Positions 1,906 through 49,652 of a stretch of DNA of 64,000 bases are shown in pieces. Position 1 is the stretch's first letter. The number at the start of each line of letters is the position of its first letter. The position numbers and the translations under genes were made by a program. This stretch comes from Mytilus edulis (lineage: Eukaryota). The stretch is taken from positions 18,662,001 through 18,726,000 of the forward strand of contig NC_092347.1 in assembly GCF_963676685.1 (NCBI RefSeq). Reading direction: 5' to 3'. The notes under the pieces were generated by a model. That model was not told where the DNA came from. It searched no databases and saw only the letters and a list, made by a program, of their open reading frames with translations.

Positions 1906-2098
1906 ATGTTGAGACAACGTTGTGCAAGAGAAGACAGTGACGATGATATAGATAAATGTTCTGATGATGCAGTGAATGTTGCCAAGTCTAAACAAAACAA
2001 GTCTGGCATGCGTTTAGTACTAAAAAGTATAGTGAAATTCGTTTCCACTGTAATAACGATAGTAGTTTCTGTTACAATAATTAATGTCATCTGTATTG
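1906..2098 (+). CDS. Gene copy 1, coding exon 1: acidic N-tail plus predicted TM helix
   Basis: Acceptor tttcattatag ends at 1901, ATG at 1906, donor G|GTAAGT after 2098 (phase 1). Peptide MLRQRCAREDSDDDIDKCSDDAVNVA...VSTVITIVVSVTIINVICIG. Paralogous to 42293-42470, including flanking splice signals. Confidence 0.8.
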
Positions 2099-2186
2099 GT
2101 AAGTCAGTTTTATCCTTTTGTTACATACGTTACAACAAGAGTAGCAAATAAACTCATCATAGATACCATGACTAAATTTTGTGTAT

Positions 2187-2230
2187 ACGCCAGACGCTCG
2201 TTTCGTCTACAAAAGACTCATCAGTGACGC
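2187..2230 (-). ncRNA. Type I hammerhead ribozyme (minimal stem III)
   Basis: Minus strand: GCGUCA-CUGAUGA-GUCU uuugu AGAC-GAAA-CGAGCG-UC/-UGGCGU; core and stems I and II intact. Confidence 0.8.
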
Positions 2231-2525
2231 TCGAATTCATAAAAGTTTAAAAGGCCAAATAAAGTTCGAAGTTGAAGAGCATTGAGGACCAAAATTCCAA
2301 AACGTTTTGCCAAATAGCGCTAAGGTAATATAATATATAATAATATATTAATATATAATATTAATTCATAAATATAACCATATCAATGATAATTCTTGTC
2401 AGCACAACAAATACTGACTACTGAACGTGTGCTACCCTTGGGGAAATAAATCTCTACCAGTAGTGGCATCGACTGAGTGGTTGTAAATAAACTCATCATA
2501 GATACCAGGGCTAAATTTTGTGTAT

Positions 2526-2569
2526 ACGCCAGACGCGCGTTTCGTCCACAAACAACTCATCAGTGACAC
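2526..2569 (-). ncRNA. Type I hammerhead ribozyme
   Basis: Minus strand: GUGUCA-CUGAUGA-GUU guuugug GAC-GAAA-CGCGCG-UC/-UGGCGU, with palindromic stem III ACGCGCGU. Confidence 0.78.
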
Positions 2570-2849
2570 TCAAATCCAAAATAGTTAAGAAAGCCAAATA
2601 AAGTACGAAGTTGAAGAGCATTGAGGACCAAAATTCCTAAATGTTTTCCAACTACAGTTCAGCCTATGCCTGAGGTAGAAAAGCCTTAGTATTTCAAAAT
2701 ATTCAAAATTCTGTAAACGAAACAGCAAGTTGATGAACTCAAATTTAGAATTAACAGCAAAATATTTATAAATAAAATTGCCAAAACAGTAATAATTTTT
2801 TTCGAACAGTGCAAACAAAAGATACACGACTTACATATAAGGTAACATA

Positions 2850-3170
2850 AAAAGTAAAATCACAAAAATACTGAATTCAAAGGAAAATTCTAAATGAAAA
2901 GTCCCATAACTCATCGCCAAATCAAAAGCTCAAACACATCAAACGAATGTATAACAACTGTCATATTCCTGACTTAGTAAAGGCATTTTCTTATGTACAA
3001 AATGTTATATTGAACCTTGTTTATTAGATAGCTAAACATCTCATTGTGATAGTCACATTACACTCCATTATATTGACAATGATGTGTGAACAAGACAAAC
3101 AAACATAACAGGTACAAATGACAAAAAAGGGGTACAACAGTCAACATTGTGTTATAATCTTTTTCATTAT
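2850..3170. repeat. Dispersed repeat family (aaaagtaaaatcacaaaaatactgaa...actgtcatattcctgactt)
   Basis: Related copies at ~18330-18560, ~20550-20700 and ~35480-35830; an inverted relative at ~31050-31463. Confidence 0.65.
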
Positions 3171-4459
3171 AAAATATTGCTACTCTAAATGGTTGACTTG
3201 GATAACAACTTGATCCTGTCCAGTAGTTAAAGACCCATGTTGAAGGAATGTCCGTTTAATGAACACGAAAATAAAAGAATGCAAGTACTGTTGAAAATTA
3301 TCCATTACATTGAGGTCAATATGGGCAAGATAATACCGTTACAAACTGAAGAAATTGTTGCAGAATCCAATGCAATGGAAAAAAACCGACAAACTATAAA
3401 ATGTTTTAAATCACAATTTGAGGTTTTAAAATATTTGTATGAGTTTAGAATATATCAATGCATACATTGATCTTATATACACCAATACAAATCAGAACTG
3501 CAAATTAGATAAGGAACATTGCAAATCACAGAAAAAACAAATTGATTATGTAGTTTACACACTTAATATCAATTTGGGGTTTATACTATGTAACATTATT
3601 CATGCTTTTCTCTTCAAACAAAAACTATAACCTGATGATTAACATAGTCATTCACTTAAATTAATCAGCGAGTAGGTCATGTATTGTACATTTTAAGAAA
3701 AGAAGCAGTACATAACTGGGCTATGATCCTTTTCGCATACAGAAACCAAATGGAAATTAACTTAACAACTTGCATCAACTCAGAATGGAGCATGACCGAA
3801 TGCGTTGTCAATGTAAATATCTCATTATATGCAAATTGTTTTTCTGTCAAAACGTAAAATTATTGGAAAGAGCAGATCTACCTACGATTATTTTATTTTG
3901 AGTTCGAAGATCGCTGAATCAAGTCTCTCATGGGTAGATCCAATCAACATTATATATGTGAAGATCTAAGACTTGAGTGATGTGAGATACAAACATAGCA
4001 TGTGTTATTTAGTGAGACAACATTATTAAAGTATTTAAATGTTAAATTAAAGTGTTTTTTATGGGGTTTTTTGTTTGTTGTAAGATTTTCATGAACTAAA
4101 AAAAAAAATGGAGAATATGGGTGTATAATACCTCTTGGTGTTCTGGCTATTTTCAAAACTAAAAAATAATAAGTCAATCTTAACATTAGGCATTTTGATG
4201 AATGGATTAACAATTTATTTTCAGATGGATTTAATTCATTTTTATTATATATAGGATTCACGTTAGATTTTGTTGGAGGATTGTTTTGACTTTTTGCCTT
4301 CTTATAAATGGAGACTTAAATCGCCCTTTTACAAGCAATGATTACACAGAAGGTGAAAAAGAATGATTTGCATTTTTTGTAAGATCTAAATTTTCTCAAT
4401 ATAGGCTCATGTCAGCTATAATTGATGGAGTTTAGTTTCCATAGTTTTTATAATTTCAG

Positions 4460-4672
4460 GCGACCCTATTATCAATGTGCAATCACGGGAAGACATTTTG
4501 ATGCTATCTGATCAGTTGAAGAGGGTATCAACAAAAATGGATGATTACTGCTCTTCATTTGAGGAGAGTAAAGGGGTTTATCTCTGCAAAGAACTGGAAG
4601 AACAAATCAGAGAACTTGAAGATCAAAACAGAAAACTGAAAACGAAACATCAAATGGCAGAAGCAGAAAAAG
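4460..4672 (+). CDS. Gene copy 1, coding exon 2: coiled coil
   Basis: Acceptor taatttcag, donor AAAG|GTAATT, phase 1/1, in frame with exon 1. Peptide GDPIINVQSREDIL...CKELEEQIRELEDQNRKLKTKHQMAEAEK. Paralogous to 42769-42957. Confidence 0.8.
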
Positions 4673-6112
4673 GTAATTTACGTTTCAGTTCTTCTCTACA
4701 AATAATAAAAAACAATGTAAACATATTTTCATTGATTGGCTCACCAAGAAAATCATCCAAATCCGTTCGAATGCCACTTTTGCTAAATGAGTTCATATTT
4801 GGCACATTGGTGCACCTTAGTAATGTAAAAAAACACAAACATTTGTTTTGGGAAAATATTAAACCGATCTGGATTCTTTTTATGGCGCCATCTTTTAAAA
4901 GGAGAAATTGCTCGAAAATGACAAAAATAAGCCTTTTTTGCATATTTCGCTGGTTTAAATAAAAAAATATGGCAACATATATACTTTTTTGATAGTTGTA
5001 CCTAGTAAAACATCACTTTAAGTGTAAGAATGCATAGAAATAACAATGCTGTCTATTAAGTGCATGTATAATCTAACTGTTTCAATATGTCTTATTTAGC
5101 ATCATGTCAAAAATGGATGATTTTGGTCATCTTTCAGAGCCGAAATACTCCAAGATCAGGTTATTATTGTAAAATAACATATCTACTTGCAAAGTATAAC
5201 TATATATACACAATTCATGAAAATATTGAGCTCGGCAAATAATGTTGGTTTCTAGTATATGCCACAACAAAATGGGGTAGCCTGCACTTTCAAATTTTGT
5301 CAATTTTGCCGTCTCATTTGTAACATCTGACATATGATAAAATCTGTACTTATAAATAAGTATAACAACAGATGAATATTAAATGTTTCATTTAATACAT
5401 TAAAAGAATAATCATACATAAATACATACATTATTCATTATAAATCTATAGGCTTCAAGGAGCCGAAATAGTGCATTGACAAATTGTGCACTTAAAACAA
5501 CAAAAAACACATATTTTAAAAAACAAAAAAATTAAAAAAGTTAAACTCTTCAGAAAAAGTTCAGACTGTAAAAGAAAATTTCTTCTGACCATTTTTACAA
5601 TTTATTCTTATAATATATTAATATATAGCTGTCGGATAATAGCAGAAAAATGTGAAAATTTGTAAATTTACACATTGCAGGGACAATAGCTCTGACATAG
5701 ATGGTATGTCCAATTTTTCAGAAAATGTTTGGGTACTTGTCATGTTAATAGTTTATTATATATATATATAAATATATATATGTATGTATATGACCACTTG
5801 TTCTAAAGTTTTAAAAATAATGGTTTAAAAGAGAAAAGATAACTACTTAAATAAGTCTAACGCATAGTAATATACTTTAATTCATTCACGGACCTACTAA
5901 AATAAAGCTAACGCACAGTAGTATACTTAAATTCATTCACGGGTGTGTTCTAGTATATATTAGTTTTCAATTAAGACTTGTTTATACTTATTCGTTTAGG
6001 CTTGTATCATATTTTCCCTCCGGTTTATATGATCCGTTCATCCTATATTGACTCTTAAAATTCAAGAGTCTATATTGAATTGAGGGTGATTTTTATGCCG
6101 TTTCGATCCCCA

Positions 6113-6156
6113 ACATCGCTGAAGAGACATTTATTGTCGAAATCCGAATCTTGTGT
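6113..6156 (+). ncRNA. Type I hammerhead ribozyme, unit 1 (stems I and III weakened)
   Basis: ACAUCG-CUGAAGA-GACA uuuau UGUC-GAAA-UCCGAA-UC/-UUGUGU. Confidence 0.7.
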
Positions 6157-6656
6157 ACTAAAAAAAATAAAAACATATTGACAGTTCATGTTTGTAGCAT
6201 AACATCTTGGCCACAAGTTTTTTGTTTTCTGTTTAGCATTAAATTTATATTTAGATCCATTGTGTTACATCTTGTGATCAATTTTATTTGTCATTTGCCA
6301 ATGGCAGTCAGCAGGGTTAAAGAACATCAGTTGTTCGACCTGTTAGTCAATTGCGTTTTGTTTAATTATACTTTTTCTTTTTCACTTTTTTGGTCTTTTG
6401 GAAAATGTTGTTTGTGCTGTATTTTGACCCTTCTACAACGAAATTTGTTTTACATGAACACGTATAAAACCGCAATCATAGGTTTTTTAGCGTTGTTTTC
6501 AATTTAGACTTGTTTATATTTTTTCGTTTGGGCTTGTATCATATTTTCCCTCCGGTTTATATGATCCGTTCATCCTATATTGACTCTTAAAATTCAAGAG
6601 TCTATATTAAATTGGGGGTAAATATTATGGCCGTGCAAATACCGCTTCGATCCCTA

Positions 6657-6700
6657 ACATCACTGAAGAGACATTTATTGTCGAAATCCGGATCTTGTGT
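6657..6700 (+). ncRNA. Type I hammerhead ribozyme, unit 2
   Basis: ACAUCA-CUGAAGA-GACA uuuau UGUC-GAAA-UCCGGA-UC/-UUGUGU (one mismatch in stem I). Confidence 0.78.
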
Positions 6701-6987
6701 ACTAAAAAAAATAAAACAATATTGACACCTCATGTTTGTGGCATAACATCTTGGCCACAAGTTTTTTGTTTTCTGTTTAGTATTAAATTTATATTTAGAT
6801 CCATTGTGTTACATCTTGTGATCAATTTTATTTGGCAATCTCCAATTGTCAGAAGGGTTAAAGAACATCAGTTGTTCGATCTGTTACATGTAGTCAAATG
6901 CGTTTTGTTTAAATATACTTTTTCACTTTTTTGGACTTTTGGAAAATGTTGTTTGTGCTTTATTTAGATAGACCCTTCTACAACAAA

Positions 6988-7556
6988 AGGAATAGGTTCA
7001 GTAAGACCCCTTTTTGGCCCAGTTTTACAAAATTGTGAAAATGTAATCTTTTAGCTATTTACTTGAAAGTAGAATGCTTCCGCTACATGAATATTGGCTG
7101 TTTTTGACAATACAATGGACATATATCGGGTACTAGCATCATTAAGTCATGCTAAAGTACTGAAATCTTCATAAATTTAGCAGTTTAGTTAAATTTTAGA
7201 CGGTTTACGTCTTAAATGAAAGTGGTCGCATTCGTGTTCATTCATAATATTGAAATGTAAGTTGTATTTGATGATAATACATAACATATATAAAGGTTGA
7301 GGATGAACACGGATGCGGACACTTTCATTTTTGACAAACACCATACGAAAAGTGACGTTTTTTGGCATATTTGATAGATTTTGCATATTTAAGCTTGAAT
7401 CGGAGCGTTTTTAATTACTAAATCAGTAAAAATCTTTCACATAAACTAATTGAATCAACTGAAATAGACACTTAAGTGTTTAGAAAGTGTCCAAAATCTT
7501 TCTTTGGATGAACCTGAAATTTGAGGCCAAAATTAGCCCTTACCGGACAAACTCCT
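6988..7556. mobile_element. MITE (TIR aggagtaggtccggtaagg), copy 1
   Basis: Degenerate TIRs at both ends; close copy at 41467-42046; interrupts an HHR repeat unit. Confidence 0.8.
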
Positions 7557-7781
7557 TTGTTTTATATGCACACGTTTAAAAAATGCGGTTTTTATCCAAC
7601 GCAATCATAGGTTTAAACGTAGTTTTCAATTTAGACTTGTTTATATTTTTTCGTTTGGGCTTGTGTTATATTTTCCCTCCGGTCTTTATGATCCGTTCAT
7701 CCTATATTGACTCTTAAAATTCAAGTCTATATTAAATTGAGGGTAAATTTTATGGCCCTTCAAATACCGTTTCGATCCCTA

Positions 7782-7825
7782 ACATCACTGACGAGACATT
7801 TATTGTCGAAATCCGGATCTGGTGT
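7782..7825 (+). ncRNA. Type I hammerhead ribozyme, unit 3 (best preserved)
   Basis: ACAUCA-CUGACGA-GACA uuuau UGUC-GAAA-UCCGGA-UC/-UGGUGU; stem I fully paired, N7 varies as expected, stem III region AUCCGGAU is palindromic. Confidence 0.85.
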
Positions 7826-8179: not shown

Positions 8180-9199
8180 AAGGGGCTACAAACACAGAAA
8201 TATCAAAAAAAGCTTTCAGAAAGCGGAATCAATTCCCAGGAGTGAACTATTGGAATACAAAGTTAAAAAGAAAAATAAAAGGACTCCATGTGTTCTTACT
8301 TACCACCCATCTCTCAAAAACAGCTTTGGTGTCATTCGTGAGCATTGGAAATCAGTTGAAAAGAATTCCAAACTATCCAAGATTTTTCCCGAACCTCCAA
8401 TGATAGCTTTTAGGCAACCTAGTAGTCTGCGGAACCTGCTGGTGCGGGCTGAAGTGTCTGATAATAGAAGTACTCCTGGAGAATGTCGTTCGTGTGAAGA
8501 AAAACGCTGCAAATGCTGCCTACAGATGCAGCATTCATTAACATTTCACAGTAAGGCAACCGAAAACAACTATAAGATATTTTGCAATGTTACCTGCAAA
8601 AGTATGAATGTTATTTACATACTAGAATGTTCGGTTTGTGGCCTCCAATTTGTTTGTGAGTCAAAGCAGCCTTTCCACAAACGCCTCAATGGCCATAGGA
8701 GTGATATCTCTAAGAAGCCACTTCTCCCAGTTTCTCAGCACTTCAGACAGTCGGGTCACAAACCTGATGACTTTAACCGCATGAAAATTCTAGTGATTGA
8801 ACAGAATATTCACTGGAGTGATGCCCAGCGACAGGTTAGGGAAAGCTTTTGGATAAAGGAACTTAATGTACATCATCCAAACGGCATCAATAAGAAATAC
8901 TAGCGTTTTTGTTTTTTCACTCATTTTTATTGTTAATATACACAGTCACGTATATTGATTTATAGTGTTTTGTTTATATTATGATATTCAGGCTTTTGGA
9001 TTAAAAATCAATCGACCAAAACTTACCTGTATTATTACTGATCTATTTTTACACCTTATACATTATGTATCAGTATTGTTAAAACTTGTGACACTTGAAG
9101 AAGGCCATTTGTTGAGCCGAAATATTTGTCAGCACGATTTAATAACAACATTTTCGTATTATAACATCTTATATCAGTACCGTTGTGCAAATCTTTAGA

Positions 9200-9200: not shown

Positions 9201-9240
<40 letters not shown>

Positions 9241-11440: not shown

Positions 11441-14400
11441 TTGGTCAGCTTTGACGTCGCTGGAAGAGGGTTGGACAAGGATGTTGACATTTTGCTTGAC
11501 CATACAAATGGAATGTCAATGAATTCCATAAAGTCCCTGTACTTGCAACCTGAGGCAAGTTTAAGAATTAATAAATATCAGAAAATTATGGAACTTCACG
11601 AGGGAAATGATGCTGGTTTTTATTCTTTAGTACGGACACAAAGATATCCAGCAAATACTAAAACTTCTTCGCTTACTTTTAATGAATTCTCTTTTTTAAA
11701 AATAACGATAACTTGATCCGTGATGCATGGATGGATTACTTTCAAGATTTGGCATCTACTATGGATTCTGACAATTTTGATAAAGAACACTTTAGTCTAG
11801 TTGAAAATGATATAGAACATTTAACAAAAACCTTTACTGAAAATAAGATAGACAATATTGCACCTGTAACAGAAGTTGAAATGAAAAGTATTTTATTATC
11901 TATGAAAAATAATAAATCTGATGATGAAGAAAAAATAGCAGTTGAACATTTGAAATATGGTGGACCTATTATGATAATTATAATGACTTTATATGTAAAT
12001 GCTATTTTTAAACATTTACATAATCCAACTTTATTGAAAGGTGGGATTGCCTGTCCTGTTTTGAAAAATGGGAAACCAAAAATTGATCCGAACTCATATC
12101 GGGAAATAACTATTACAAGTACAGTAGGAAAATTTGTTGAGAAAACTCATGTATCTCAAAATAAAAACTCTGTAACTATAAACCAAAATAAACTTCAAAA
12201 AGAATTTACCTCTGGACAAATGCCTATTATTGCTGCTTTAATTTTAATTGAACTTATAATCCAAGCAATTAAGACAAAATCACCACTATATTTGGATTTA
12301 ATGGATGCAAGGAAAGATTTTATCATTGTTTGGCATCTTGGCCTGATGAGAGAAATGCACAAGTTTGGTTTAACGGGGACAATTTGTTATTTTTGAAAAG
12401 ATGTTACCAAAATCTTACATTTAAAATTAAATGGAAAGGGTAACAACAAGATGTACGACACGGCAGTATCTGGTCACCGACAGCCAATAAGATTTTAATA
12501 AATTCACTTTTACAAACTTGTATATAAATGATAAATTGCCAAAGTCTTGGTTATTGAATGGTAAATCAGTAACACTTTCCGAATTTGCAGTTCATCTTGG
12601 AATAGATAGAAATAAAACTAAAAATTATGGGGTTAAAGAAGTTGTGAACAAGCGTATTACTACTGCAAAGAAAACTGTATACTCTCTCATGGGTGCTGGG
12701 TTACACGGTTTGAATGGAGTCAATCCAAAAGTTTCTGTACACTTGATTCAAACATATGTTATACCTAGAATTCTGTATGGTTTAGATGTCATATCTCTCT
12801 CAAATACAGATATAAAAAGATGGAATTATTCTTTAGACAATTATCAAAGCAAATCCAGAACTTGCCTAAACGCAAATCAATAGCTGCAACTTTATTATTA
12901 TTAGGGCGTATTCTTATAGAGGGAGAAATTCATCAGAAAATTTTGAAAACATTTGGAAACATAATTAGAAATGATAAGTCCGTTGAAAGAGAAATTGCTT
13001 TAAGACAATTGACTATGAAAGATGAAAAATCTGAAAGTTGGTTTACAAAAACTACACAATTTGACTGTAATTAATGGATTACCATCGCCTTATGATATCA
13101 TTGAGAATCCACAATCAAAAATAAGCTGGAATAGACATGTGGATAACTGTATCAATAAACATTTTTAACAAAATTTAAAGAAGGAAGCGTAAAAAAAAGT
13201 CATCCTTGAAATATATTATTTTAATGATTCCAACATAGAAACTGTGCTTAATATTTGGAAAAGCAGTGGGACTGACCCGTACTCCGTAAATATGGCCGCT
13301 ATTAAAGTTAAAATTGCCACTGGAATAATGATTCTTCAGTATCAGAGGTCTAGATTTTCAAAACAATTGTATCTCTGCAAACTGTCCATTATGTAACATT
13401 GAACCAGAAGATATGACTCACTTTATACTTAAATATGAAAAGCTGTCAAGCATACGAAATCGCTTTATCCAAGAGCTGAAATCTTTTCTCGTATATTGTA
13501 ATAAGCCATCTTTGCTAATACAAGAACTATTTGATTATGAAGAAAATCTTTTACATTTAATTATAGTCTGAACATCATACCATTTTCTTACCTTTAAAGT
13601 CATAAGAAACCTCAAATAAAAAAAAAATCATGCATATGTTTTTAAAACTAAATGGATAGTTTTCATTATACAACTTATGAACATATACATTTTTTCTGAG
13701 GATCATTCTTTAATTTGTCCACATTTAGAAGAAGTTTATTTATTTTTAATTGCTTGCTTCCAGGAAGCAATTCGCCGACATATTTTCCGTATGCATAGTG
13801 ACCTGAGCGTAACCCTCCTCGTAAAAATCCGGCGATCGCAATACGCATGGATCTGTCATTAAAATAAACAATTATCTGATTGTACATGTTAAACACGTGC
13901 TCAATACCCATGCTTTTTGTTATTTGTTTACTATAAGGTGACAATCGGTAAACTTCGGCTTTGAAACACGGCATTTAATGAGCAGCCATACTTGTTAAAT
14001 CATAACAGACAGAGTGAAAAAAAATTGACGATTATACGATATTTCTGCGTAAAAAATGATAAAATCATGCACAGAGTTCTAAGTTTGTGATATATACATC
14101 CATTGGTTCAAGAATTGGATAAACATTATTTTTCACCACTCACTGGTTTCGTATGACTTTAAGGAACAGGTCCGTATAGCGACATTAACCAGATGCGTTA
14201 CAAACTATATAAAAACGTTTACTTTTAATATCTGAGTAAATTTATTATCAGTATAGGTGGTATAAGGAAAACCAAAGTATAATACATATTAGATAACATT
14301 TCGATATACATATGCATTGATCCGCATTTTCCTGGACTGTGTCAGGATTTATATAGTGATTCTTATTCTGCAATATTAAGAGGTAGATAGTGTTTGAAAT

Positions 14401-22254: not shown

Positions 22255-22979
22255 ATACCTCCGAATGTGGCGAGGCGGATTGTAAAGGAAATGAGCCACC
22301 AAGATTTGTTTGCCTCTCAGCCTCTAGTAAGAACAACCTTTATACATGCGTTTTTGGCAATAGATGTTTAGCGTCTAGACTAACAGACACTTTGAATATC
22401 ATCACGAAATTCAAATTAGCATATCCCGAAATAGCTGATGACGATAAAATACTACTCGAGTTTGGATTTATGACATCAATGTCTCTTCGTTCGGATATAA
22501 TTGTTAGAGCCTTAAGGTGTATGGAGGAACCCGGAATATGTTTCTATATACTAGATGACGTATGGACAAAACTGGAAAACGTAGCATATCAAGAGATATC
22601 CGAATATGTACAAGTAGACATAACACTTGAGCTTCATCAATCCAACTTTGTTCTTCTCTCAAACTCGAAAAACATTTATATATCAAAAACGTCAAATGAT
22701 TTATCCATGGACGAGCTTTTTCCTGTGTTTGGATTTTACAATACACACCTTATCCATATTTCACAAACAATTTATTCCAAGTATGATATACGCTTTGACG
22801 GAACTACAGTTGATCCGCACCTATTTATTTCAGAAGATTTCACTACCTTGTCGACTTCCCAATTACTGGTTAAAAGACAACATCCCTATTTTTGGGGAAG
22901 TCCCGTTTTTTGCATTCCGGTAGCAGTATTGAATGCATGTACATGTATTTATTATTGTAGCAGGATGCCGAACAATTAA
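22255..22979 (+). CDS. Gene copy 1, coding exon 3: SPRY/B30.2-like domain plus C-terminal hydrophobic segment
   Basis: Acceptor ttttttatag|AT (phase 1), open to the stop at 22979. Spliced CDS 193+213+725=1131 nt, 376 aa. Strong similarity to 48820-49652. Confidence 0.8.
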
Positions 22980-25900: not shown

Positions 25901-28900
25901 TCTTTGTTTTCAGTTTCTAATTAACAGTGAATACATTTTTCCGTTAAAAAGTTATCGTAGTTATGTTGTTCGTAGTTACCAACGGTTTATAAACTTAAAA
26001 CAAATGAATCATTTAAGATCTTGTATGGTAAAATGTAAAAAACTACAAAGTCCACAGAGACAAAACTACAATCGGAAGAGAACAAAACTATCTACAAACC
26101 ACACCAAGTTGTTAATATAGAGTATGTCCGAAGAGAACCTGCAGTGAGACAACACCAAAAAGCTTTGAGTATTTCATTAAAATTACCTTATTTTAAAAAT
26201 AACTGGCTGTTAAAATGTTCATAAAATAACTTCTAAAAAAGTAAATTTAAAAAGTTCTTCACATTAAAGATTCATCTTTGTAAATCCCATTTTAAAATTA
26301 TAGTAGTAAAAACTTATGAAGAAAACTTCTTGATTCTTTTGATCAACTTATCCTCAACAATTGTAAATTTAACATATCCCATTTTAGTAGAACCTTTTTT
26401 TTGTAATGTATTATCTTTACTACCTTTACTATTTAAAAAAAATATTTACAGCTTTATATATTAACAGTTATACGAGTACTCGTGATCGATACGTTCTACT
26501 TATGATTTGACTTTGCAGAATTCCATGATTTTTCTGATGAAAAAAAAACAAATTTATTCTAAGATAAATTCGTTTGATGTGTACTGTCTTTTAACTCTAT
26601 CAAAATACGACAAAATTTTCACACATGATTTTGGAACTGTTCCTCTGGTCTTAACTACAATCCTGTTCCCTCTCATAAATGGGAATCACGGAATTAGACT
26701 ATTAAACGGGTTTGTATTTACATGAATCATAAGACAGGTGCCACTTGAGATCACGCTAATTTTTTTTCTGGGGTTCGTGTTGCTCAGTCTGCAGTTTTCT
26801 ATATGTAGTGACTTTTGAACTTTTATTTGTCTGTTGGTTTTGTTTCTTTTTTAGCCATGGTATGGTCATTTTATTTTCGATATATGAGTTGCAATGACAC
26901 GCTGGTATCTTTCATTCCTCTTTTAGCTTTGAACTAGCTTTCAGCAGAGACGAGTATTCTAATATCAGTGATCTGTGTAATGTATATCACTTCAATAAAT
27001 TAAATGTTAATTTTCTTTTTTTCCTGTAATTTCGCAAATGCTTGTGAATTATTTTCTAATTGATAGCGTTAACGGTATTGGATGCATTACGATATGCAAC
27101 ACCAGTTTTTGATTGCGTTGTGTTTGTATTTGTCTCTTTTAACTGTTTAATCACGTTTTAAAAATTGCTTTGACACTTATGAATCATGGTTCGTAACTAT
27201 TTGAGATAAAAGTGAATGCTGGTAAAGACGGTCGATATGTAGTACATAATTTCTAGTTGTATGATAACCATTTTTACATCCGTCAGCGAAACATCAACTG
27301 TACATCTAAGTATGTTAATTGATTGATAACTTACCTTACATCATTCAGTGTATTTCTCTTGAACTTTTAAATATTTTCTTTTCTTTTTCTTTTATTAGAG
27401 CGCTAATGATGAGGGTTCTGAAATGCACGAAATGCTTAAGTACGAATTTATAAGCCTGGTATCTTTGATGATTTTTATTGTTTTACATTGAAACCAAAAT
27501 CCATCCAAAATGTCTGTAGATAGAAGATTAACATATCACATTCATGGATGACAACTTATGTAATAGCCATGCTCTTATAACAAAATGGTTCCCTTGATTG
27601 TCATAAATCAATTATAATGCACTTTAATACTTATAGTTATTGAATTAATCATTGATTATGATCTATATTCAAATAAAAGCTCAGAATGGGTTAATACTGT
27701 GTCTAGACCTGCATAACTTTCCCCTCAATAAACCTGTTCCTTGTTGATTTGTAAGACTTGTTATAACTTATATTAAATGTAATGTACCCCAGAATAGTCA
27801 TTTGTCGGAATCTAAAAAAAAGGTGGTGAAAGCATTCAAGTATTGGTATTTGGTTTATTACAATTATCAGATGATCAAATACATAGGATAGTTTTTCATT
27901 GGAACACATTATTGTATCAAACGTTTTAGAAAGTAGCCACAATATATTTGTTTGAGCTAATTTATAAATGTGAAATTGAGTTGTCAAGTTGAAAAAATAC
28001 TTTCTGATAACCAATCAAAGAAAAGCAAACTGGAAATCATTAAATCAAGGATGCAAAATGTATTACCAAAACGGAATTTAAAAATTCTAATTACGATTCA
28101 TATTTTAATAGTTGTTCTTCTTTAATCACAAGTGCTTCAGTAATAACGACAACATGGTTACAATGTCAAAATACGCTTAGAAAACAATACCCACAACTAA
28201 CTTTTAAAAGTATTTCATATATTACTATATACTTAGTATACAATGTGTAAAAATATATATTTCATAACCAAGTATTTCTTTTCTGTTTCGAACTTAGTGT
28301 AAACACACTTCGGCCTGAAAAAGCATGTCATATTTACCTTACAATGTATAGCTATGAAATTAGCATATGTGGTATGCGCAGGTCGTCTAAAAAAGCAATG
28401 TTCCGAATCAATGTTCGTAGTATAGCTTTCCTCTTTAGTAATAAATATAAAAGAAAGATGTGGTATGATTGCTAATGAGACAACTTTGCACAAAAGACCA
28501 AATTTAAAATGACACAGAAATTAACAACTATCGGTCAACGTACGGCCTTAAACAATGAGCAAAGCCCATACCGCATAGGTTTGATTTGAGGTTCAACATG
28601 TTCAAGTCGAATTGAAAATCTTATTGTGAGAATACATCATTTGACATTACAGCAGCTGCAGCGGGCCTTCTATCGCTGGAGGAGCTGGAGCTGTAATCCT
28701 TTCCTTATCACTAAATAGTGTTTGTTTTTATTGGAAAATCTAACATTAAAATAATTTGTCATATATTCGAATATGCATAAATAATCGACATAAAGAACTT
28801 TGTTTTATAATATTACCAATGAATGTTATTTAAACTGATCGGTCGGAGCTTATGTTTAATTTGCATTAGGCCAGTCTATTTGAAGATGTGTGTTATAAGA

Positions 28901-30826
28901 ATGATTGCCATTATAATTATTATTTAATAAACCTATCAGTGTCACCAAACGCATATACAAAAGAACTGAGTGTACGATATGGAACGAATAACTGGACACT
29001 TCATTGATGAGTTTATCCAAAAACTCCTGTCTATAGCTGAACTGGTCTTAAATAAGCAAACTTCCTAAACCCCGCCCAGTCAAGTGAAATAAATCTAGTT
29101 AGGCGTGTTTTCCCGATTTTCTGATAAAAAATTATAGTTTTGATGAGGAAATCTTAGTATACTCATTTTACCTGTTATCTTACCTAGAAAAAAAATGGTC
29201 AAAACTGCATTATACACAAAATATCTGCTAATGAGGCAAATATTGTACACGGGGAAACAAAGATACTGATATAAGACATGCATTAAGATAGACCTAATCA
29301 TCTTGGTAGGAAAAGAAATTCAACTTGGCCATTGCTTTTTATGTTGAATTACCATCTTTGATTATTTAATAGTTAAACCTTATACACTTGCATGAAGAAT
29401 ATAAACGACCATCAGATCTTTTAGAGAACACTGAATTACTATAAAAATTGTTCAGTATGCCAGCTGTTTAACAAAATCTTCTAATAGAAAACTTAGATTT
29501 TTTTAAATCCCTTGTCTCATAAATCCAATGTAACGTGTGTATCAACTGAGGATTTTGCTATACTTTATACCACTTCTTACTGAATGTTTTACTAGACAAA
29601 AATTTCTATAAATGTGGCTTTGCTTTATATTTGTCCATCCTCAACTTAAAAAGATTAAGATCAGCAGTTAAGATCTCCAAGAATTTCCCCAAAATGAACC
29701 ATCTGTTAAAGGTAATAATTGTTTTTCGGTGTTTAAAATGATATTCTAGTGCATTAAACGGCAAACAAAAATCCATGAATATTAAAATTCAATACTTAAT
29801 GAAATGGATACAAATAGAATAACTATTTGTGTAAATGAGTATATAGACATCAATAACAAGGGCGGCAAGACTAGGTCAGAAGTCAACAGCATTTCAAGGG
29901 GATATTCATAGCCGCTGCCTGTCAACAATGCCACGAATAGGTTAACAATATTGGTGAATGAATATCTTAAGTGAATACAATAACACAAAAACAAATTTTG
30001 TTCATGATTTATTGATGTACATTTTCAATCGTCAAACATATTAAAAATTGAATAATTCAGCATACGAAAATTTTTGAAAGATGTTGTCTCCGTGACAGAT
30101 TAATGACTATGTGATCATTAAATACATTAGGTTTAATATAACAGCACATACATCATTTTACTATTCATCATCCTATTTGCAAGGCTAATTTCATTACTTG
30201 TCCGATTTTCAAATAAAATTTCATTGATCATACATTAGAAAATGACAAACGATAGACTTTTAACTCTTTAAAACAATTTGCCTTTGTCTGTTTATAATTG
30301 AAATAAACAAAACAACGGCTATCTTTTACTGATACGACCAAAAGCATATACACTGCTGAAAAATTCACAATTTGTCATAATCGTACATTGTTTTTAATTT
30401 CGGATAGTTCGTGAAGCTCTATTTTTTAGGATTCCTGAGTTATGATCAACACGATTAAATTTGAAAATCAAAGGAAGTGAACTGAGATGATTTTTCTACA
30501 CAAATCACTTTGTCATAGTTACTACATGTAGTCGTTTGTTTTTGTCTGATTTTGAATCTAACGTATGTCTTATATATAGACACTCGTAACTATGACATTT
30601 AAAACCGCGATAAAGTAGATGTTTCAGGTTTGAGCGTTTCTAGTAAAGATTATCCCTTTACAAGAATTCGACAAAATTGACCTCACAAGACGTCGACAAA
30701 ATTGACCTTACAAGAATTCAAATTGTGATGAAAAAATCGGCCACAACTTATACTTGGTCAAGTAATTTGTTTAAACGATTCGAGAGCCTATATAAGGATA
30801 AATGCTGCACCAGCTAGAGCATACTG

Positions 30827-37710: not shown

Positions 37711-39024
37711 AAGTCCTGCGCTGAAGATGTGTAAAGTCTAGCGCTGGAGATGTAAAGTCTAGCGCTTGAGATGTAAAGTCTAGCGCTGGAGATGTAAAGT
37801 CCAGCGCTGAAGATGTAAAGTCTAGCGCTTGAGATGTAAAATCCAGCGCTTGAGATCTAAAGTCTAGGGCTTGAGATGTAAAGTCAAGCGTTGAAGATGT
37901 AAAGTCTAGCGCTGGGGATGTAAAGTCCAGCACTGGAGATGTGTAAAATCTAGCGCTGGAGATGTGTAAAATCTAGCGCTGGAGATATGCAAAGTCTAGC
38001 GCTGGAGATGTAAAGTCAAGCGCTGGAGATGTAAAGTTAAGCGCTGGAGATGTAACGTCAAGCGCTGGAGATATGCAAAGTCTAGCGCTGGAGATGTAAA
38101 GTCAAGCGCTGGAGATTTAAAGTCTTGCGCTGAAGATGTAAAGTCAAGCGCTGGAGATGTAAAGTCAAACGTTGGAGATGCAAAGTCTAGCGCTGGAGAT
38201 GTAAAGTCAAGCGCTGGTGATTTAAAGTCTTGCGCTGAAGATGTAAAGTCAAGCGCTGGAGATGTAAAGTCAAGCGTTGGAGATGTAAAGTCAAGCGCTG
38301 GAGATGTAAAGTCAAGCGCTGGAGATGTAAAGTCAAGCACTGGAGATGTAAAATCTCGACCATCGAGGCCGGCAAACTATAACCTCGGTGAAAAAAATTT
38401 ACGTGGGTGAAGATTTCATCGGGAAGCCGAACGTAAGACCCGTGCGGTCACCGCGGGTTTCTCGACCATCGAATGCCGGCAAAGTATACCTTGGAAAAAG
38501 AAAAAAATTACTACCGCGGGTTTCGAGGAGAAACTACACCTTTGGTAAAAAAATATTACATGGTGAAAAATTTTCATCGGGTAGCCGCACGTAAGAATAT
38601 TGCAGGTCTCTCGATGACAATGGCACCGTCAACGAAGGCAGGCATTGTATACCCTCGTAAGCTGCCTCTTGACGATGCACGTTCTAACCCTAACCCTAAA
38701 CCCTAACCCATCACCGTCGACCTCGATGGTCGAGATTTTACATCTCCAGCGCTGGACTTTACATCTCCAGCGCTGGATTTTACATCTCCAGCGCTGGACT
38801 TTACATCTCCAGCGCTGGACTTTACATCTCCAGCGCTTGACTTTACATCTTCAGCGCTAGACTTTACATCTCCAGCGCTTGATTTTACATCTCCAGCGCT
38901 AGACTTTGCATATCTCCAGCGCTTGACTTTACATCTCCAGCGCTTAACTTTACATCTCCAGCGCTTGACTTTACATCTCCAGCGCTAGACTTTGCATATC
39001 TCCAGCGCTAGATTTTACACATCT
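37711..39024. mobile_element. Foldback-like element: inverted arrays of a 21-bp repeat around a ~370-bp core
   Basis: (gcgctggagatgtaaagtcaa)n at 37711-38355; reverse-complement array at 38735-39024; inner inverted repeat ctcgaccatcgagg / cctcgatggtcgag. Confidence 0.8.
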
Positions 39025-42292: not shown

Positions 42293-42470
42293 ATGTGTAA
42301 ACAGCGTAGGGTAGAAGACAGTGATGATGATGTAAATAAATGTTCTGATGATGCAGTGAATGTTGCTATGTCGAATGACACAACCATACTACTAACTAGT
42401 AAGGAGAAGTTAATTGGCACTGTGATAACGATGATAATACCAATTACAACACTAGTTATCATCTTAATTG
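42293..42470 (+). CDS. Gene copy 2, coding exon 1
   Basis: Acceptor tttcattatag ends at 42288, ATG at 42293, donor G|GTAAGT. Peptide MCKQRRVEDSDDDVNKCSDDAVNVA...IGTVITMIIPITTLVIILIG. Confidence 0.8.
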
Positions 42471-42768: not shown

Positions 42769-42957
42769 GTAACCCTTTTTATCATTTTCAATCAGAGGAA
42801 GTATTTTTGGGACTATCGGATCAGTTAAAGAGTTTATCAACAAAAATGGATACTTGTACTTCATATAAGGGGGTTAAAGAGGCTTATTTCTGCACAGAAC
42901 TAGAAAAACAAAACAGACAACTGAAATCCGAACTTCAAAAAGCATCAGCAGAAAAAG
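42769..42957 (+). CDS. Gene copy 2, coding exon 2: coiled coil (not in the ORF track)
   Basis: Acceptor ttttttag, donor AAAG|GTACTT. Hand translation: GNPFYHFQSEEVFLGLSDQLKSLSTKMDTCTSYKGVKEAYFCTELEKQNRQLKSELQKASAEK, open and homologous to copy 1 exon 2. Confidence 0.8.
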
Positions 42958-45344
42958 GTACTTGATATTTGAATTATAACCTTTAATAATAATGACCAAT
43001 TACGATATAAATGCATTTAAAAAATCATATTACAAACATTATATATCGTTCCTGTGTTTAGTACTATATTATTCTGCTCGTTTTGCTGCGATTCATATAC
43101 TACTCATGTTATGTTGAAAAATATCTACAATATTGTTATTTAAGCAGACTAGCAATATTTTGTTATAATTTTCTCTGTATTTACATTTTGAAAATATTCA
43201 ATATTGTGACTGTTTTCACAGTTTCGAAACAGTTTGTAGAAAGTGGTCTATTGACCTGACACTACAAAAGTAAACAAAGTCTGATGAAAAACCTTTTTGT
43301 TTTAATTTGTCTCAATTTTAACTCGACATTCTCTTTCATACTTTTGAAAAAATTCTTGACAAAGTCTGACTTTGTCTTAAATCAATATTTGATTTTTCAT
43401 GACAACATTTGTTTTTTACAGAATCAACATTTTCTAACAATTTCGCGACACTTACTTAACTATCAGATTTGTTTCTCTATTAGTCTCCGCCAATTCACGT
43501 CTACTATAAGTTTGTAGCGATAAGCCTTAAAAATATTTACATTTTAAGCAAGTGACTGAGCTTAACCATTTGTTTTGATTTGAAAGGTAGAGGACAATAA
43601 AAATGTGTAAAAACTAAGGAGTTATTAAATGTAGAACGTATTATGTGAAAAAAAATATTTTTGTTTACCAACAGGAACCGCATCACAAAAGGATATTTGT
43701 GTTATTCTTATTTACAGAAAATAGAATCAAACTTCGTATCCCAAAAATAGAACCATTTATGAAAAAAAATCTCAGTCTCGAAATGAGACAATATGCATAT
43801 CCAGGTTTACGATATGGACTTCGCTACAGAAGAAAACGTTACCATTGCCGCCTATGAAAAATCAATTAAGCATACTGACCCATTTGTCATGTTAACATTG
43901 AAAATGATGCATGAAAAAAGAAATATGTCTACTGTATTACTATTTAATCATTAGGCAATTATTTATAATATTCAAAATCAACATTTGTAATTATATACAA
44001 ACCCACATTTAAATTGGTTCCTAACAACATACTCAAGTGGATGTGGAATTTTTATTTGTTAATATTCTTAAATTCTCATATTTTTTCTTATAAAAATATT
44101 TGTATGCGCGATATTTGTTTGTGTTGTTAAAAGTGTAACTGGAAATAACAGTATAATATAACATTGAAATAAAGCAAAAGATATACATGGTCATGGTTTA
44201 TAAAGCTAAGAATGGTCGCAATTCAAAATTTTCATAATATGTCAAGCGATGCAAAAAGGAATGTTGAGACATTTCAAAACAGTTTTTGAATGATTGAATT
44301 TGTCAGGAAATTGTAAGACCATATTCACAAGATTGCAAACATGTCCAGTACATTTGATAAAAAAAACTTCTACTTTTGGAGAATGTCAAATAATTGTTCA
44401 AGCAAATTGAGACACAAATTGGTCTTATGGACAACAGTAAGCCATGGTGTTGTCTGGTTATTTTCGAATTACAAGTTTGAATGTCCCTCTGGTATGTTCG
44501 CCCTTCTTTCTGTCCTCAATCTTGTTGGTTAATATTATTCATGGGCCAGGAAAACAGGTTTATAGCAGCATAATTAAACGTTTTGGTTTCAAGCGGTAGG
44601 TCGTGCATGTGTTGAAAATGCAACAATTAAATGAAGTTAAACTATATAATCAAGGTGATGACATTTTGAAAAAAAATATATCTAATGCATTTCAAGATTA
44701 AATTTTAACATAAGCCTTCAAAAGATAAAGATCTGGAATAAGTTTGGTAAAATTGTCACAAAAAAAAATTTAGATGACAAGTAAGATAACAGTCAACAGT
44801 ACTTATAAATAGCTATATTATCAAATGAGAAGACATTTGTATGTTGCTTCTCTTCCTTTCGCAAAAAAGTTTTCATTATGCCTTTGTGTTCTAAAGATAC
44901 CATGCATATTCGCATTTGTCACTCTTGCTTATAATATGCTTATTTATTTTTTTTTGCTTATAGTGTGAGAAAAACTAAAATAAAGGCATCTGGATATTGT
45001 TTCCGTCATCGGACGGTCTTTTTAAGTCAGACAAGACTTCCGTTTTCGACTGTTTATAAATATAGATCAATACAGTGTTTTAGCTATTTACAATCAATTC
45101 CAAGTTTACAATGAACGTCGGTCATATATCATTTAGAGATTGAATTATATGTCTTTTCATAGTATAAAGAAAAACGCGAAAATAATTGATATTAATTGAA
45201 AACGATAGAATAACAGGTTTTAAATAGGGGGAGCTAAAGAAATTGCCTGGTACACAAGTAACTATGACATATGAGACCTTTCCTGAAATGTTCCAGTTAT
45301 TAAATATTTATAAAATTCACCTTACATTAGTTTCAATAAATTAA

Positions 45345-45625
45345 ATAATACTAAATTTAGTATATACGCCAGACGAGCATTTCATCTACAAAAGACTCAT
45401 CAGTGACGCTCGAATCCAAAACAGTTAAAAAGGCAAAATAAAGTACGAAGTTGAAGAGCATTGAGAACTAAAATTCTTAAAAGTTTTGCCAAATACAGCT
45501 AAGGTGATTTATGCCTGAGCAACCACGTACTAAAGGACCGCGATTTTGCAGATGTATTCTAGTGTATGGTTAAATTGTGGAAAATAAACTCATCATAGAT
45601 ACCAGGATTTGATTTTGTATTGACG
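45345..45625 (-). repeat. Decayed HHR-repeat remnant (motif 45366-45409)
   Basis: Same family as 2150-2715; stems II and III mutated. Confidence 0.7.
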
Positions 45626-46304
45626 CAAGAATTGTGTATGTACTAGTAATATATATTGTATTTGAATATTTGAATGTGAAATGTGTACATTTACATGTAT
45701 TTTGTTTTTGTTTGAGTGCCTCAATAAATATAAGAACTATTATCATAGAGTAATCCTCTTTAGATGAAGAACTTGTAATTAAATGATTTTCATAAGTTCT
45801 TCCCTAACTTAAGTTTGAAAAAGTTTACAAATGCTTAATTTCACCAAAAAAAAACAGATTAAGTTCGGAATTGGGGTGCATAATTTTTATCGATCTAGAG
45901 TTGTGTCCGTTTTAGAATGTATGAAATATTAAATCTTTTGGTACCGTTCTCTAACTTTAGTTTACCTCAACCAAATGTTTTGAAACTCACACATTAATTA
46001 CACATTGATTACAATCTAAAATAAACTTTAACTTCGTGACTTCTGCATCATTATTTGGAAGTTGGCTTTTGTGTTTTTGCGAGCGGGAACATATGTGGCC
46101 CATAGATAATTCCTCTGTTTATTTTGAAATAAAATATCTTCAAACGTAACCTATCAATAATGTTCTGTTTATTTATTTCACCCATTAATGCTTCTATAAC
46201 TTAAAGAATCAATTTTAAATTCTTGATTTTTTAAAAGTTTCTCCTACATCCTAACGATACATATGGTATCTCCCATAATTGTGGATTGCAAATTAGTGAC
46301 ATAA

Positions 46305-46475
46305 TTGTTATCAAAGGTACCAGGCTGATTATACGTCAAACGCACGTTTCGTCTTCATAAGACTCACCAGTGACCCTCATATCGAAATAGTTAGAAAGCC
46401 AAACAAGAATACAGTTAAAGAGCATTAAAGACCCAAAGTTCCAAAATATTGTGCCAAATGCGGTGATCTATGCCT
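46305..46475 (-). repeat. Decayed HHR-repeat remnant (motif ~46333-46376)
   Basis: Same family as 34690-35148; core reads CUGGUGA. Confidence 0.65.
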
Positions 46476-46809
46476 AGTTATTGGTCTCAACTTTGATGGA
46501 ATGGCTACTGCCTGAAAAATAACATATTTTTTGTGTAAAATAGCAAACAATCTGATATCATCTGGGATATGCAAAAACGGTCAAATAATATTTTCAAAAA
46601 GAAATCAACACAGTAAACATATAAAGATTTAAGACATTTTTAAAACCAGCATATATATTCAGCACATGAACGTTCATAATTAATATAGTAAACGCTTGGC
46701 CAAGAGAACTATCAATTGTAACTTTGCAATTATTCTCCATTGCATATACCATTGAACATAAGATAATAACAAGGAACCACTACATTTTTTCAATTATGGA
46801 CCATTATTT

Positions 46810-47150
46810 CTGCCTAACTTTAACATGGTCATGGTGTCCATAAAATTTACAAAGTGTCAATTTAAATATTTCCTCCTCATCACTGTTGGAGCAGTTTCTG
46901 CTTAAGGAGCACACTCCTGTATAAGCATTACGAATAGTGTACATATGCAGGAGCCGAATGTTTAATTGAGGTATGTTAACACCGTAAGACGGAGCAGAAT
47001 GTACTTCACTTCTGGTAAAATGGAAATTGATAATTGGAAATTTCGAATTTGATATCAACCCGTTTTTCCAACTGTTTTATGTGAAATCGTCAATCTTTCT
47101 TAATATGAAAGAAAGGTTCAATCAAGGTATGATGCAGTCCGTCTTGTATC
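46810..47150 (-). pseudogene. Penelope-like reverse transcriptase remnant (thumb region)
   Basis: Decayed TASYLD, FPIINF...SAPSYGV.I.QL and LCKFYGHH motifs. Confidence 0.5.
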
Positions 47151-48819
47151 AATAGAATACTTATTTTATCATAAAAAACTACTACATGTGTATTTTATAA
47201 TGCAAATAACAACCTGCATAGGTTGTTTTTGTAAGCTGTTTCTCTTTATGAAACATTTTCAAAGATAATTATTTTTTTTTAACATATACTGGTTCCAAGT
47301 TATTATCTTTATGTTTGATCTCGTAGATACATAACTTAGGAATATCACCAGTAAATATGCATATGCATACAACTCCCATTGAAATATGTGGAAATCATAA
47401 AGTCAAGGTAGCGGTAGTACACATGTTTAGTGCAAGTTTAAACTTTAAGAAGTTCGGGGTATATAAACGTTGAAAATAAGCCGCACAGCCCGATAGTTTG
47501 ACCTTTGAAAGAAATAGTGATGCATTATAACTTTCCATTATAGGATATAGTTTTTTCAAAGCTTCATAGTAAAAGTGGTACTGTTATAACCGTAAAAGGA
47601 GTTTCTATTTGAAATCACATTGTGGATATAATCAGAAATGTATCCTATATTGGGTGAAAAACAGAACATTTCATCAAATCTAGTTTATCTCAGAGATTTA
47701 TAAAACTAACTCAAAAACAAAGTTTTATAAATATTTCATGAAGATTGACAAAATCCTGGGCCTTAACTACGACTACTTTGCATAAATTCACAGTGAACAG
47801 TATGCATAGTTTACTCAAAGCCATACATTCAAAATAAATTCATAATATATGCATGTTTGTAATTTCAATTGTTAAGAAGTGCTTATATTTACTCTTCGCG
47901 GTCATTGAAATTCATAGATTCTTCCTGAATATTATTGGTGGGATGTTTTTGTCCTGTCGTAAATTCAAAAGTAAGCCGTAAAACCAAAATAATTATGCTT
48001 TTTGTGACAGTCGCATAAAAAAAATACAAGCTAGAAATACAAAAATAACTCATCAAATTTTCCAATAGTATGGTTTATCCTAAAAATGTATTAAATTTTC
48101 AATATTGGTAGAAACAGCAGAATAATTTAGGAAATATGTGGCCAAAAAAAAAAAACTGAGAAAAATGCATACCCCTCTGTCATAAAACAAATAACTTGCA
48201 AATGCTATGTTTTGATTACGTTAAAGATCTTTTAATTAGAAAAGAATAACTGTGCTTGGAAGTTATGAGAAATTTAGATGTAAGCAGTCATCTCTATAAA
48301 ACATTTTGTGAATTCATACATCAAAACTGGTATCTTCATACAGACAACAAATACAAATATGACTTTGTTCAAACACTTCTAGTTCATATATTAACTAACT
48401 TTTGTTAGATACATGGCAAGAGATGATACTGTTGTTACAAGATTTTTAAATTCACCATTTGAGGCAAAAATTTGGAACTTTCATTCACAAAAAGGTTTAC
48501 AGCAAGATGTTAACAAGAGATATAGGCAGGATTGGATACTTGATATATTCTTCCCTGAGGTATCACCAGCCAAGTGGTCAGCACTTCGGTGTTGACATGA
48601 ATAACAATTATATGGTAAATTAAGTATATTTCCTGTTGACAAACTTTCATAAATCAGGATTTTCTTATCCCAGGAATAGAGAATAGACTACCGTAGCTGT
48701 ATTTGGCATAACTTTTTAAAATCTTGGTAAATAACTAATATCTGTGCATATTATCTTATATTTGAACTTTAATATGTTAATTGAACATACTTTGAGAATG
48801 TGACTATCTTCTTTTATAG

Positions 48820-49652
48820 ATACCATTACATGTGACGATTCAGATTATAAAGAAAATGTTCCACCTAGATTTGTTTGCCTCTCTGCGACCAGTACAAACA
48901 ACCTTTATAAATGCGTCTTTGGAAATAGAAGCCTATCATCTCAATTTACAGACAAAATAAATATCATCATAAGATTTAAATTATTATACCCAGAAATAGC
49001 GGATGACGGTAAAATATTTCTCGAGTTTGGTCTTACCACGTTAACTTCTAGTCGTCGAGATATCATTGTCAGAGGCCAAAGATGTATAGAGAAATCCGGA
49101 TTATGTTTGTATGTATTAGATGACATATGGACAAAACTAGAAGACGTTGCATATGAACAGATGTCCGAATATGTACAAGTAGGAATAACACTTGAACTCC
49201 ACCAATCAAACTTTGTTCTTCTTTCGAACAGTGCAAACATTTTCATATCAAAGACGTCAAGTAGTTTATCTATTGACAAACTATATCCAGTGTTTGGATT
49301 TTACAATACACACCTAATTAACATTTCACAAACAATTTTTTCCAAGAATGATATAAGCTTCGACGGAACTACTGTTGATCCTCACCTATTCATTTCTAAA
49401 GATAACATTACTTTATCGACTTACCAGTTGCTTAGAGAACAAAATTATTCAAGTTATTTTTGGGAAAGTGTTCTGTCGTGCATTACTATAGCAGGATTTA
49501 TAGTATGTATTTATTTACGGTGGTGGGTAATGAAAAGGCGGGAAAATAATACGGACACAATTGCAAGTATCTATGAAAATTGTTATTTATATATAAGAAG
49601 ATTAGGAATGAGTACCAATGAGTCAACTCTCCATTTCAATCATCATTTTTAA
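48820..49652 (+). CDS. Gene copy 2, coding exon 3: SPRY/B30.2-like domain, TM helix and tail
   Basis: Acceptor cttttatag|AT. Reads DTITCDDSDYKENVPPRFVCLSATS... in frame into ORF 49107-49652. Spliced CDS 178+189+833=1200 nt, 399 aa. Confidence 0.8.

Follow-up and report, generated by a model that had tools for sequence, protein, structure and literature searches.

The window analyzed here, a 64,000-nucleotide stretch of the Mytilus edulis genome (contig NC_092347.1, positions 18,662,001 to 18,726,000 of the forward strand), carries a tandem pair of genes for membrane proteins with a hydrophobic segment near each end. Judging from sequence comparison, the SPRY-like part held between these segments is almost certainly a circularly permuted B30.2 domain, with the SPRY first and the PRY strands behind it. 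Both genes are likely to derive from membrane-spanning TRIM ubiquitin ligases, and the permuted domain probably faces the cell exterior or lumen. The parts of the two genes are as follows.

1906-2098 / 4460-4672 / 22255-22979, + strand: coding exons of gene 1; the spliced frame is open and encodes 376 amino acids (aa).
1906..2098, + strand: gene 1 exon 1, with an acidic N-tail, a basic flank, and the first transmembrane segment (TM1, aa 46-64).
4460..4672, + strand: gene 1 exon 2, a helical, coiled-coil-like stalk, phase 1-1.
22255..22979, + strand: gene 1 exon 3, with a PRY remnant linker, SPRY (~22341-22784), PRY strands (~22785-22853), the second transmembrane segment (TM2, ~22905-22961), and a 5-aa tail.
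42293-42470 / 42769-42957 / 48820-49652, + strand: coding exons of gene 2; the spliced frame is open and encodes 399 aa.
42293..42470, + strand: gene 2 exon 1, with an acidic N-tail and TM1 (aa 41-59).
42769..42957, + strand: gene 2 exon 2, the stalk, with Cys89 and Cys101; omitted in RefSeq isoform X2.
48820..48905, + strand: remnant of a first PRY in gene 2; its Cys127 and Cys142 are a pair characteristic of the decayed-tandem clade described below.
48906..49349, + strand: gene 2 SPRY of the permuted B30.2.
49350..49418, + strand: gene 2 PRY strands after the SPRY (the permuted segment).
49461..49652, + strand: gene 2 TM2 (aa 337-355) and a 44-aa tail, replaced by ends of 0-14 aa in other alleles.

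The permutation is most evident from profile comparisons. The reference profile was built from 17 single-B30.2 proteins drawn from 90 profile-search matches, with P0053, P0057, and P0077 set aside as spurious. In its natural order, the query gave two non-collinear matches to this profile, one connecting query 34-190 to template 44-206 in the SPRY (E = 2.6e-13) and the other connecting query 188-211 to template 4-27 in the PRY (E = 2.5e-5). Shifting the PRY columns to the front yielded a single 185-column match (E = 5e-18), and BTN3A1 was also matched in swapped order, albeit weakly (E = 0.17). The canonical arrangement, with PRY N-terminal to SPRY, is hence reversed. Pfam PRY was detected in 9 of 20 family members at E ≤ 1 (best 1.2e-5), gene 1 staying under the cut-off with E = 0.18, and some single-domain relatives match Pfam SPRY. 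None of the LDP, WEVE, and LDYE motifs, as given in the available part of PMC12730704, occurs literally in either protein, where only degenerate positional equivalents are seen. It is partly because of the permutation that such proteins escape Pfam and stay “uncharacterised.” The initial annotation had called this region SPRY-like, which is correct for the type of fold but missed the permutation and the kinship with transmembrane TRIMs (TM-TRIMs).

For the structural comparison we used an AlphaFold2 (AF2) model of a gene 2 orthologue, in which the domain is a confident beta-sandwich of ~180 aa (predicted local distance difference test mostly 75-92). The best VIA matches of this predicted model were the PRYSPRY domains of MID1 and MID2 (Z, 12.0-12.2; root-mean-square deviation, 2.6-3.3; 118-124 aligned residues); these alignments are limited to residues 143-300, and circularly permuted jelly rolls reach 324-327. 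Weighing against a B30.2 identity, galectin and GH16 jelly rolls lie within ~1 Z of B30.2, and Foldseek placed galectins first. With galectins and glucanases so close behind B30.2, the fold alone is not decisive, and it is the sequence that decides. Galectins bind beta-galactosides through the motifs H-x-N-x-R and WG-x-E-x-R, neither of which was seen on reading both protein sequences. Given this missing sugar-binding motif and the sequence traces of PRY and SPRY, the galectin or GH16 identity was rejected. An ESM Atlas query with a homologue returned only leads below 0.9, two of which were SPRY clusters. The PRY strands presumably pack within the permuted fold.

A possible route to the permuted order is visible among the relatives that carry B30.2 in tandem. 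In the decayed tandems of the TM-TRIMs, the inner halves (SPRY1 and PRY2) are conserved and the outer halves (PRY1 and SPRY2) are decayed, with PRY2 scoring 31-46 bits, PRY1 at most 19, and SPRY2 below 10. Intact tandems keep both: in the four that carry both PRYs, each PRY scores 24-35 bits. In a structure model of a tandem, residues 1-44 are of low confidence, and residues 36-225 group together. The family contains single B30.2 domains, intact tandems, tandems whose outer halves have decayed, and the permuted unit in truncated form. This series is the one expected under the model of permutation by duplication, and the family provides living examples of each of its stages in a major domain.

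Both gene models are confirmed as real and transcribed. The initial annotation had proposed two three-exon genes of 376 and 399 aa with conserved splice sites and phases, and splicing its exons gives open frames with all four introns GT-AG and in phase 1. RNA contigs span three of the four predicted junctions: a single contig of run X1 bridges both junctions of gene 2 (42470/42769 and 42957/48820), the second of which is also spanned by an X3 contig, and the 17.6-kb intron of gene 1 (4672/22255) is spanned by contigs of runs X1 and X2, from one study. The remaining junction, 2098/4460, was not observed directly; an X1 contig extends 259 nucleotides (nt) beyond exon 2 toward exon 1, which fits exon 1 plus a short untranslated region. 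According to a database lookup, the gene 2 protein is RefSeq XP_071166046.1, an uncharacterised M. edulis protein, and a second isoform (X2) of 336 aa skips exon 2. Since gene 2 contigs reach 56-161 nt upstream of an acceptor AG sited 4 nt before the ATG, there must be an additional short 5′ exon; its position was searched for and not found. RING and B-box, present in paralogues, were not found in either gene, the extra 5′ exon being short (56-161 nt in the contigs). Spliced transcripts come from independent studies, and RNA coverage is low or patchy. As a point against the reading preferred below, raw run X24 (~6% read) yielded essentially zero reads on gene 2 exons. Gene 1 contigs are missing from runs X3 and X4; here, as for gene 2 in X24, absence and silence are not separable.

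The layout proposed initially, with hydrophobic segments near both termini, a coiled-coil stalk, a conserved exon 3 between divergent TM1 flanks and C-tails, and N-x-S/T sites in the loop of the second copy, agrees with our results. TM1 has a Kyte-Doolittle mean over 19 residues of 2.5 and 2.6 in the two proteins; TM2, with means of 1.7 and 1.85, is only moderately hydrophobic, which counts against the reading preferred below. Heptads and AF2 helices predict a helical stalk of ~60-70 aa, formed by two helices that could fold back, and TM2 follows within about a dozen residues of the B30.2 domain. Between the two proteins, amino acid identity is 72% in the exon 3 domain compared with 52-56% in exons 1-2 and 34% in the TM2 region. 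The loop holds four N-x-S/T sites in gene 2 and none in gene 1. A homodimer prediction of the ectodomain scored 0.00, with the alignment not used and the fold uncertain, and speaks neither for nor against dimerization.

Next, we considered the origin of the genes. Exon 3 has 23 matches in its own genome, 15 on C4, 7 on C8, and 1 on C11; eight of the C4 copies are intact and of the short type, and the rest are broken or partial. The paralogous exons on C8 and C11 are twice as long as this short type; they are preceded by exons for RING-B-box-coiled coil and by a middle exon that encodes a TM helix. The assignment of the RING, TM, and B30.2 exons to single transcripts is based on their order in the genome and on database models, full RING-B-box-coiled-coil-TM-tandem B30.2 models existing in Mytilus and Ostrea. 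Cytosolic TRIM45-like proteins and intact tandems are found among the 90 profile matches, as are proteins that combine B30.2 with TM+TSP1 or with a signal peptide; the matches that were looked up came from mussels, oysters, a pearl oyster, a scallop, and Solemya. Trees were built from 53 and 30 hand-picked rows, the 53-row tree being a quick version. The permuted rows form one clade (100/99) within a clade that joins them with the decayed tandems (96/91), and this joint clade stands apart from intact tandems and, in the quick 53-row tree, from single-domain rows. As the oyster and mussel branches of the clade both hold TRIMs, parsimony favors loss of the RING. Two observations weigh against our overall reading: nesting within the TM-TRIMs and a sister-group position were not separated (approximately unbiased test, p = 0.41 and 0.19), and models P0015, P0021, and P0043 join the RING-side exon directly to B30.2, without a TM. 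A search for longer fusions, within 843-2405 aa, gave one TM-TRIM only and carries little weight. In the scenario we prefer, B30.2 would have been duplicated in tandem in a bivalve TRIM bearing one TM helix, and the outer halves PRY1 and SPRY2 would have decayed, leaving SPRY1 plus PRY2 as the part that is conserved; Mytilus would then have lost SPRY2 and the exon for RING and B-box, and gained a stalk exon that is symmetric (phase 1-1). Close named homologues are all from Mytilus, with intact relatives in four species. The earlier idea of a lineage-specific family holds for the permuted form, seen only in Mytilus among named records, but not for the parental TM-TRIM layout, which oysters share.

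Several relatives deserve mention in their own right. TRIM gene clusters in which a TM exon precedes a tandem B30.2 exon lie at L024-L031 (C8:84.32-84.54 Mb), L026 and L050-L052 (C11), and L053 (C25), and at the end of several C8 members there is a short hydrophobic stretch that looks like a glycosylphosphatidylinositol (GPI) signal. The permuted paralogues L004-L007 (C4:1.35-1.39 Mb and 21.19 Mb) have at least two extra hydrophobic segments behind the domain. P0085, P0097, and P0108 from Mytilus are type II membrane proteins with TSP1 and canonical B30.2, and the N-tail of P0085 holds six YxxL motifs, like a signalling immune receptor. P0087 from Argopecten (three near-identical records) combines a signal-peptide-like start with a coiled coil and B30.2, and P0106 is a CARD, B-box, and B30.2 protein.

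The extracellular loop suggested by the initial annotation is, on predicted features, probably real. The C-flank of TM1 is more acidic than its N-flank in six of seven permuted proteins, and in gene 2 and an oyster TRIM the tail behind TM2 is basic. Sequons in the domain exceed shuffled expectation (30 versus 18.8 ± 4.0 and 50 versus 30.8 ± 4.8), whereas those in RING exons do not (24 versus 22.0 ± 4.2), and two sequon columns are conserved (N158, 16 of 18 Asn rows; N318, 16 of 16). Only one TM separates RING from B30.2 in the C11 and oyster TRIMs, and among wider relatives B30.2 occurs in fusion with TM+TSP1 or with a signal-peptide-like start. Alternatively, both ends could be luminal and the permuted B30.2 cytosolic, as a membrane-tethered sensor or adaptor like butyrophilins and ordinary TRIMs. 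Most known B30.2 domains are indeed cytosolic, serving as the standard recognition module of antiviral TRIMs, and the nearest outgroup consists of cytosolic TRIM45-like proteins. Further points against an outward-facing domain are that the gene 1 loop lacks any sequon, that three models lack the TM exon, and that 4 of 9 TRIM middle segments contain a second hydrophobic stretch (mean, 2.1-2.5), which, should it span the membrane, would put B30.2 on the cytosolic side. Moreover, eight single-B30.2 relatives with a TM or signal peptide show no sequon excess (21 versus 21.6 ± 4.1), and the sequon test is therefore not a universal marker. Set against the charge bias at TM1 and TM2, the sequon enrichment with its conserved columns, the lone TM of the C11 and oyster TRIMs, and the TSP1 fusions of relatives, the cytosolic arrangement appears unlikely. 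The pair Cys211/218, once taken as a sign of a luminal loop, also occurs in cytosolic relatives and was dropped as an indication of a disulfide.

Comparison of the two genes showed that the B30.2 domain is under purifying selection: the ratio of nonsynonymous to synonymous substitution rates (dN/dS) is 0.30 (0.20-0.44) in the domain, compared with 0.83 for exon 1, 1.16 for exon 2, and 0.76 for the region around TM2, all three with intervals that include 1. A dN/dS analysis had been suggested initially as a check; it gave no sign of overall positive selection, there being no overall excess of amino acid changes at the level of genes or exons (no site model was applied), which speaks against the reading preferred below. 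The steady constraint across paralogues (dN/dS, 0.24-0.51; 21 pairs) and a fold common to lectin-type jelly rolls would suit a non-immune luminal or surface binder, for example a receptor for cargo or quality control in the secretory pathway, or a protein of adhesion or gamete recognition. We regard this as not very probable, in that tandem clusters with broken copies, the TRIM ancestry, and the YxxL-tailed relatives better fit a recognition family with fast birth and death. The broken copies nearby, the frameshifted tail alleles, and the low or patchy RNA coverage could also point to decaying duplicates without function, but open frames, transcripts spliced in independent studies, a dN/dS of 0.30, and the four Mytilus species with intact relatives make this very unlikely indeed.

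In contrast to the domain, the stalk and tail vary. Exon 2 of gene 1 contains a 21-nt repeat in three copies (4590-4649) and is one heptad longer than that of gene 2, whose own exon 2 can be skipped, and models from other species contain duplicated segments. The C terminus of gene 2 takes four different forms among five records, including frameshift alleles, all of which retain the hydrophobic anchor; given this variety, signalling by the tail is improbable. In the window allele the tail is basic and 44 aa long, and another allele ends without a tail in a hydrophobic, GPI-signal-like stretch. Outside the window, the next paralogue (G000:C4:18751979-18780236, L036-L039) has 13 candidate 54-nt mini-exons of phase 1-1 between exons 2 and 3, each encoding 18 aa of coiled coil at a spacing of mostly ~1.2 kb, an array that could add up to ~230 aa of stalk.

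Taken together, these proteins quite possibly act as RING-less, non-signalling surface binders, i.e., in capture, as decoys, or as co-receptor partners of TM-TRIM ligases. The N-tail would be cytosolic (type II), the stalk and B30.2 would lie outside, and the second anchor would sit directly behind the domain. With neither a ligase nor a conserved cytosolic tail, the protein would not signal alone but hold or present its ligand, for which a host receptor or the surface of a microbe or virus is most likely; uptake or signalling driven by ubiquitin would be supplied by TM-TRIMs. An immune role is inferred here. It is tempting to speculate further that TM-TRIMs with a B30.2 ectodomain are undescribed bivalve receptor ubiquitin ligases, and that the window genes are their RING-less permuted offshoots, with stalk length tuned by exon skipping and mini-exon arrays, serving as innate-immunity decoys or target-selective tethers; this wider proposal is doubtful as a whole. 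If true, placing B30.2 on the outside of a TRIM that spans the membrane would tie the sensing of what lies outside the cell directly to ubiquitination, and the RING-less relatives would form a paired activator/decoy system in farmed bivalves, in which antiviral receptors are poorly known. A narrower alternative is a tether, tetherin-like yet unrelated to tetherin, with its anchors in different membranes (the cell versus a budding virion, vesicle, or neighboring cell), the stalk spanning the gap, and B30.2 selecting the target. Two terminal anchors and a helical stalk suit this, as do the short distance from domain to TM2, which requires a long stalk to fold back or bridge two membranes, the mini-exons of the neighboring paralogue, and the GPI-signal-like allele. 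We nevertheless consider a tether improbable: the short stalk could fold back on its two predicted helices and is skipped in one RefSeq isoform, the Pfam scan found no tetherin family, selection is concentrated on the globular domain, and the mini-exons are only candidates.

The surroundings of the genes bear out the tandem duplication proposed earlier. Collinear low-copy non-coding blocks lie upstream of both genes, from which we deduce a duplication unit with an offset of 35-40 kb:

27302..29964, + strand: low-copy non-coding blocks that precede gene 2 and are 73% similar to those preceding gene 1; they belong to the duplication unit.

Weak reverse-transcriptase and RNase H matches occur within and around both genes, among them reverse-transcriptase and endonuclease-like fragments in intron 2 of gene 1 (8181-8903 and 11686-12883) and retroelement fragments at 54460-60528, with RNase H-like and reverse-transcriptase matches below the Pfam cut-off. 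The window also holds a 21-bp tandem array (~30 copies), behind which the same unit forms an inverted array (~13 copies), at 37730-39019 and a 46-bp GC-skewed minisatellite made of 9-bp units at 61854-62606. Broken exon 3 copies, one inverted, lie at G000:C4:18743006-18743483 (−) and 18845135-18845879 (+), and a similar inverted exon 3 piece recurs together with exons 1-2 at C4:21.14-21.15 Mb.

Among known systems, the B30.2 of TRIMs (MID1, MID2, TRIM5, and TRIM25) and butyrophilins resembles the domain in its predicted beta-sandwich (Z ~10-12) and in the sequence traces of PRY and SPRY; in the mussel proteins, however, PRY follows SPRY, matches stay below Pfam thresholds, the domain is likely luminal, and RING, B-box, and immunoglobulin (Ig) domains are missing. 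In particular, neither the Pfam scan nor the AF2 model revealed the Ig ectodomain of butyrophilins. We conclude that the protein is a B30.2 derivative in reversed order and not a TRIM, butyrophilin, galectin, or tetherin. Tetherin (BST-2) combines a short N-tail, a type II TM, a helical stalk with cysteines, and a C-terminal GPI anchor, and has no globular domain. The likeness to it noted initially thus stands for the predicted topology, with N-tail, type II TM, helical stalk, and second C-terminal anchor; homology is unsupported, as a beta-sandwich of ~180 aa fills the loop, no tetherin Pfam family appears at E ≤ 1, and one isoform lacks the stalk. In the parts of the respective sources available, variable SPRY loops set substrate specificity (PMC13175477), and vespryns/ohanin (PMC12730704) and nematode SPRYSECs (PMC5071358) are secreted SPRY proteins. 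The latter two likewise employ B30.2/SPRY outside the producing cell, but are soluble, of canonical order, and not membrane anchored. The crayfish TRIM PcTrim is reported to lie at the cell membrane and to bind a viral protein, but “transmembrane” is absent from the main text and an ecto-B30.2 from the passages available (PMC10165819). SPRY and B30.2 are likewise absent from the main text of the mussel pan-genome paper (PMC7653742; supplements excluded), and our search, which did not extend to subscription journals and supplements, found no literature on B30.2 domains that are permuted or that are membrane-bound and extracellular, nor on bivalve TRIMs of this kind. The gene models are already in databases; the permutation, the link to TM-TRIMs, and the probable outward orientation of the domain seem to be undescribed. 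The closest counterparts are uncharacterised bivalve TM-TRIMs (XP_048755868, XP_076105697, and the CAC-series TRIM2_3 model P0116). These retain RING-B-box-coiled-coil and a decayed second SPRY, both lacking in the window genes, which have a stalk after TM1 instead; they share with them the SPRY1 plus PRY2 unit, the phase 1 intron before the B30.2 exon, a TM in front of B30.2, and, often, a hydrophobic anchor behind it.

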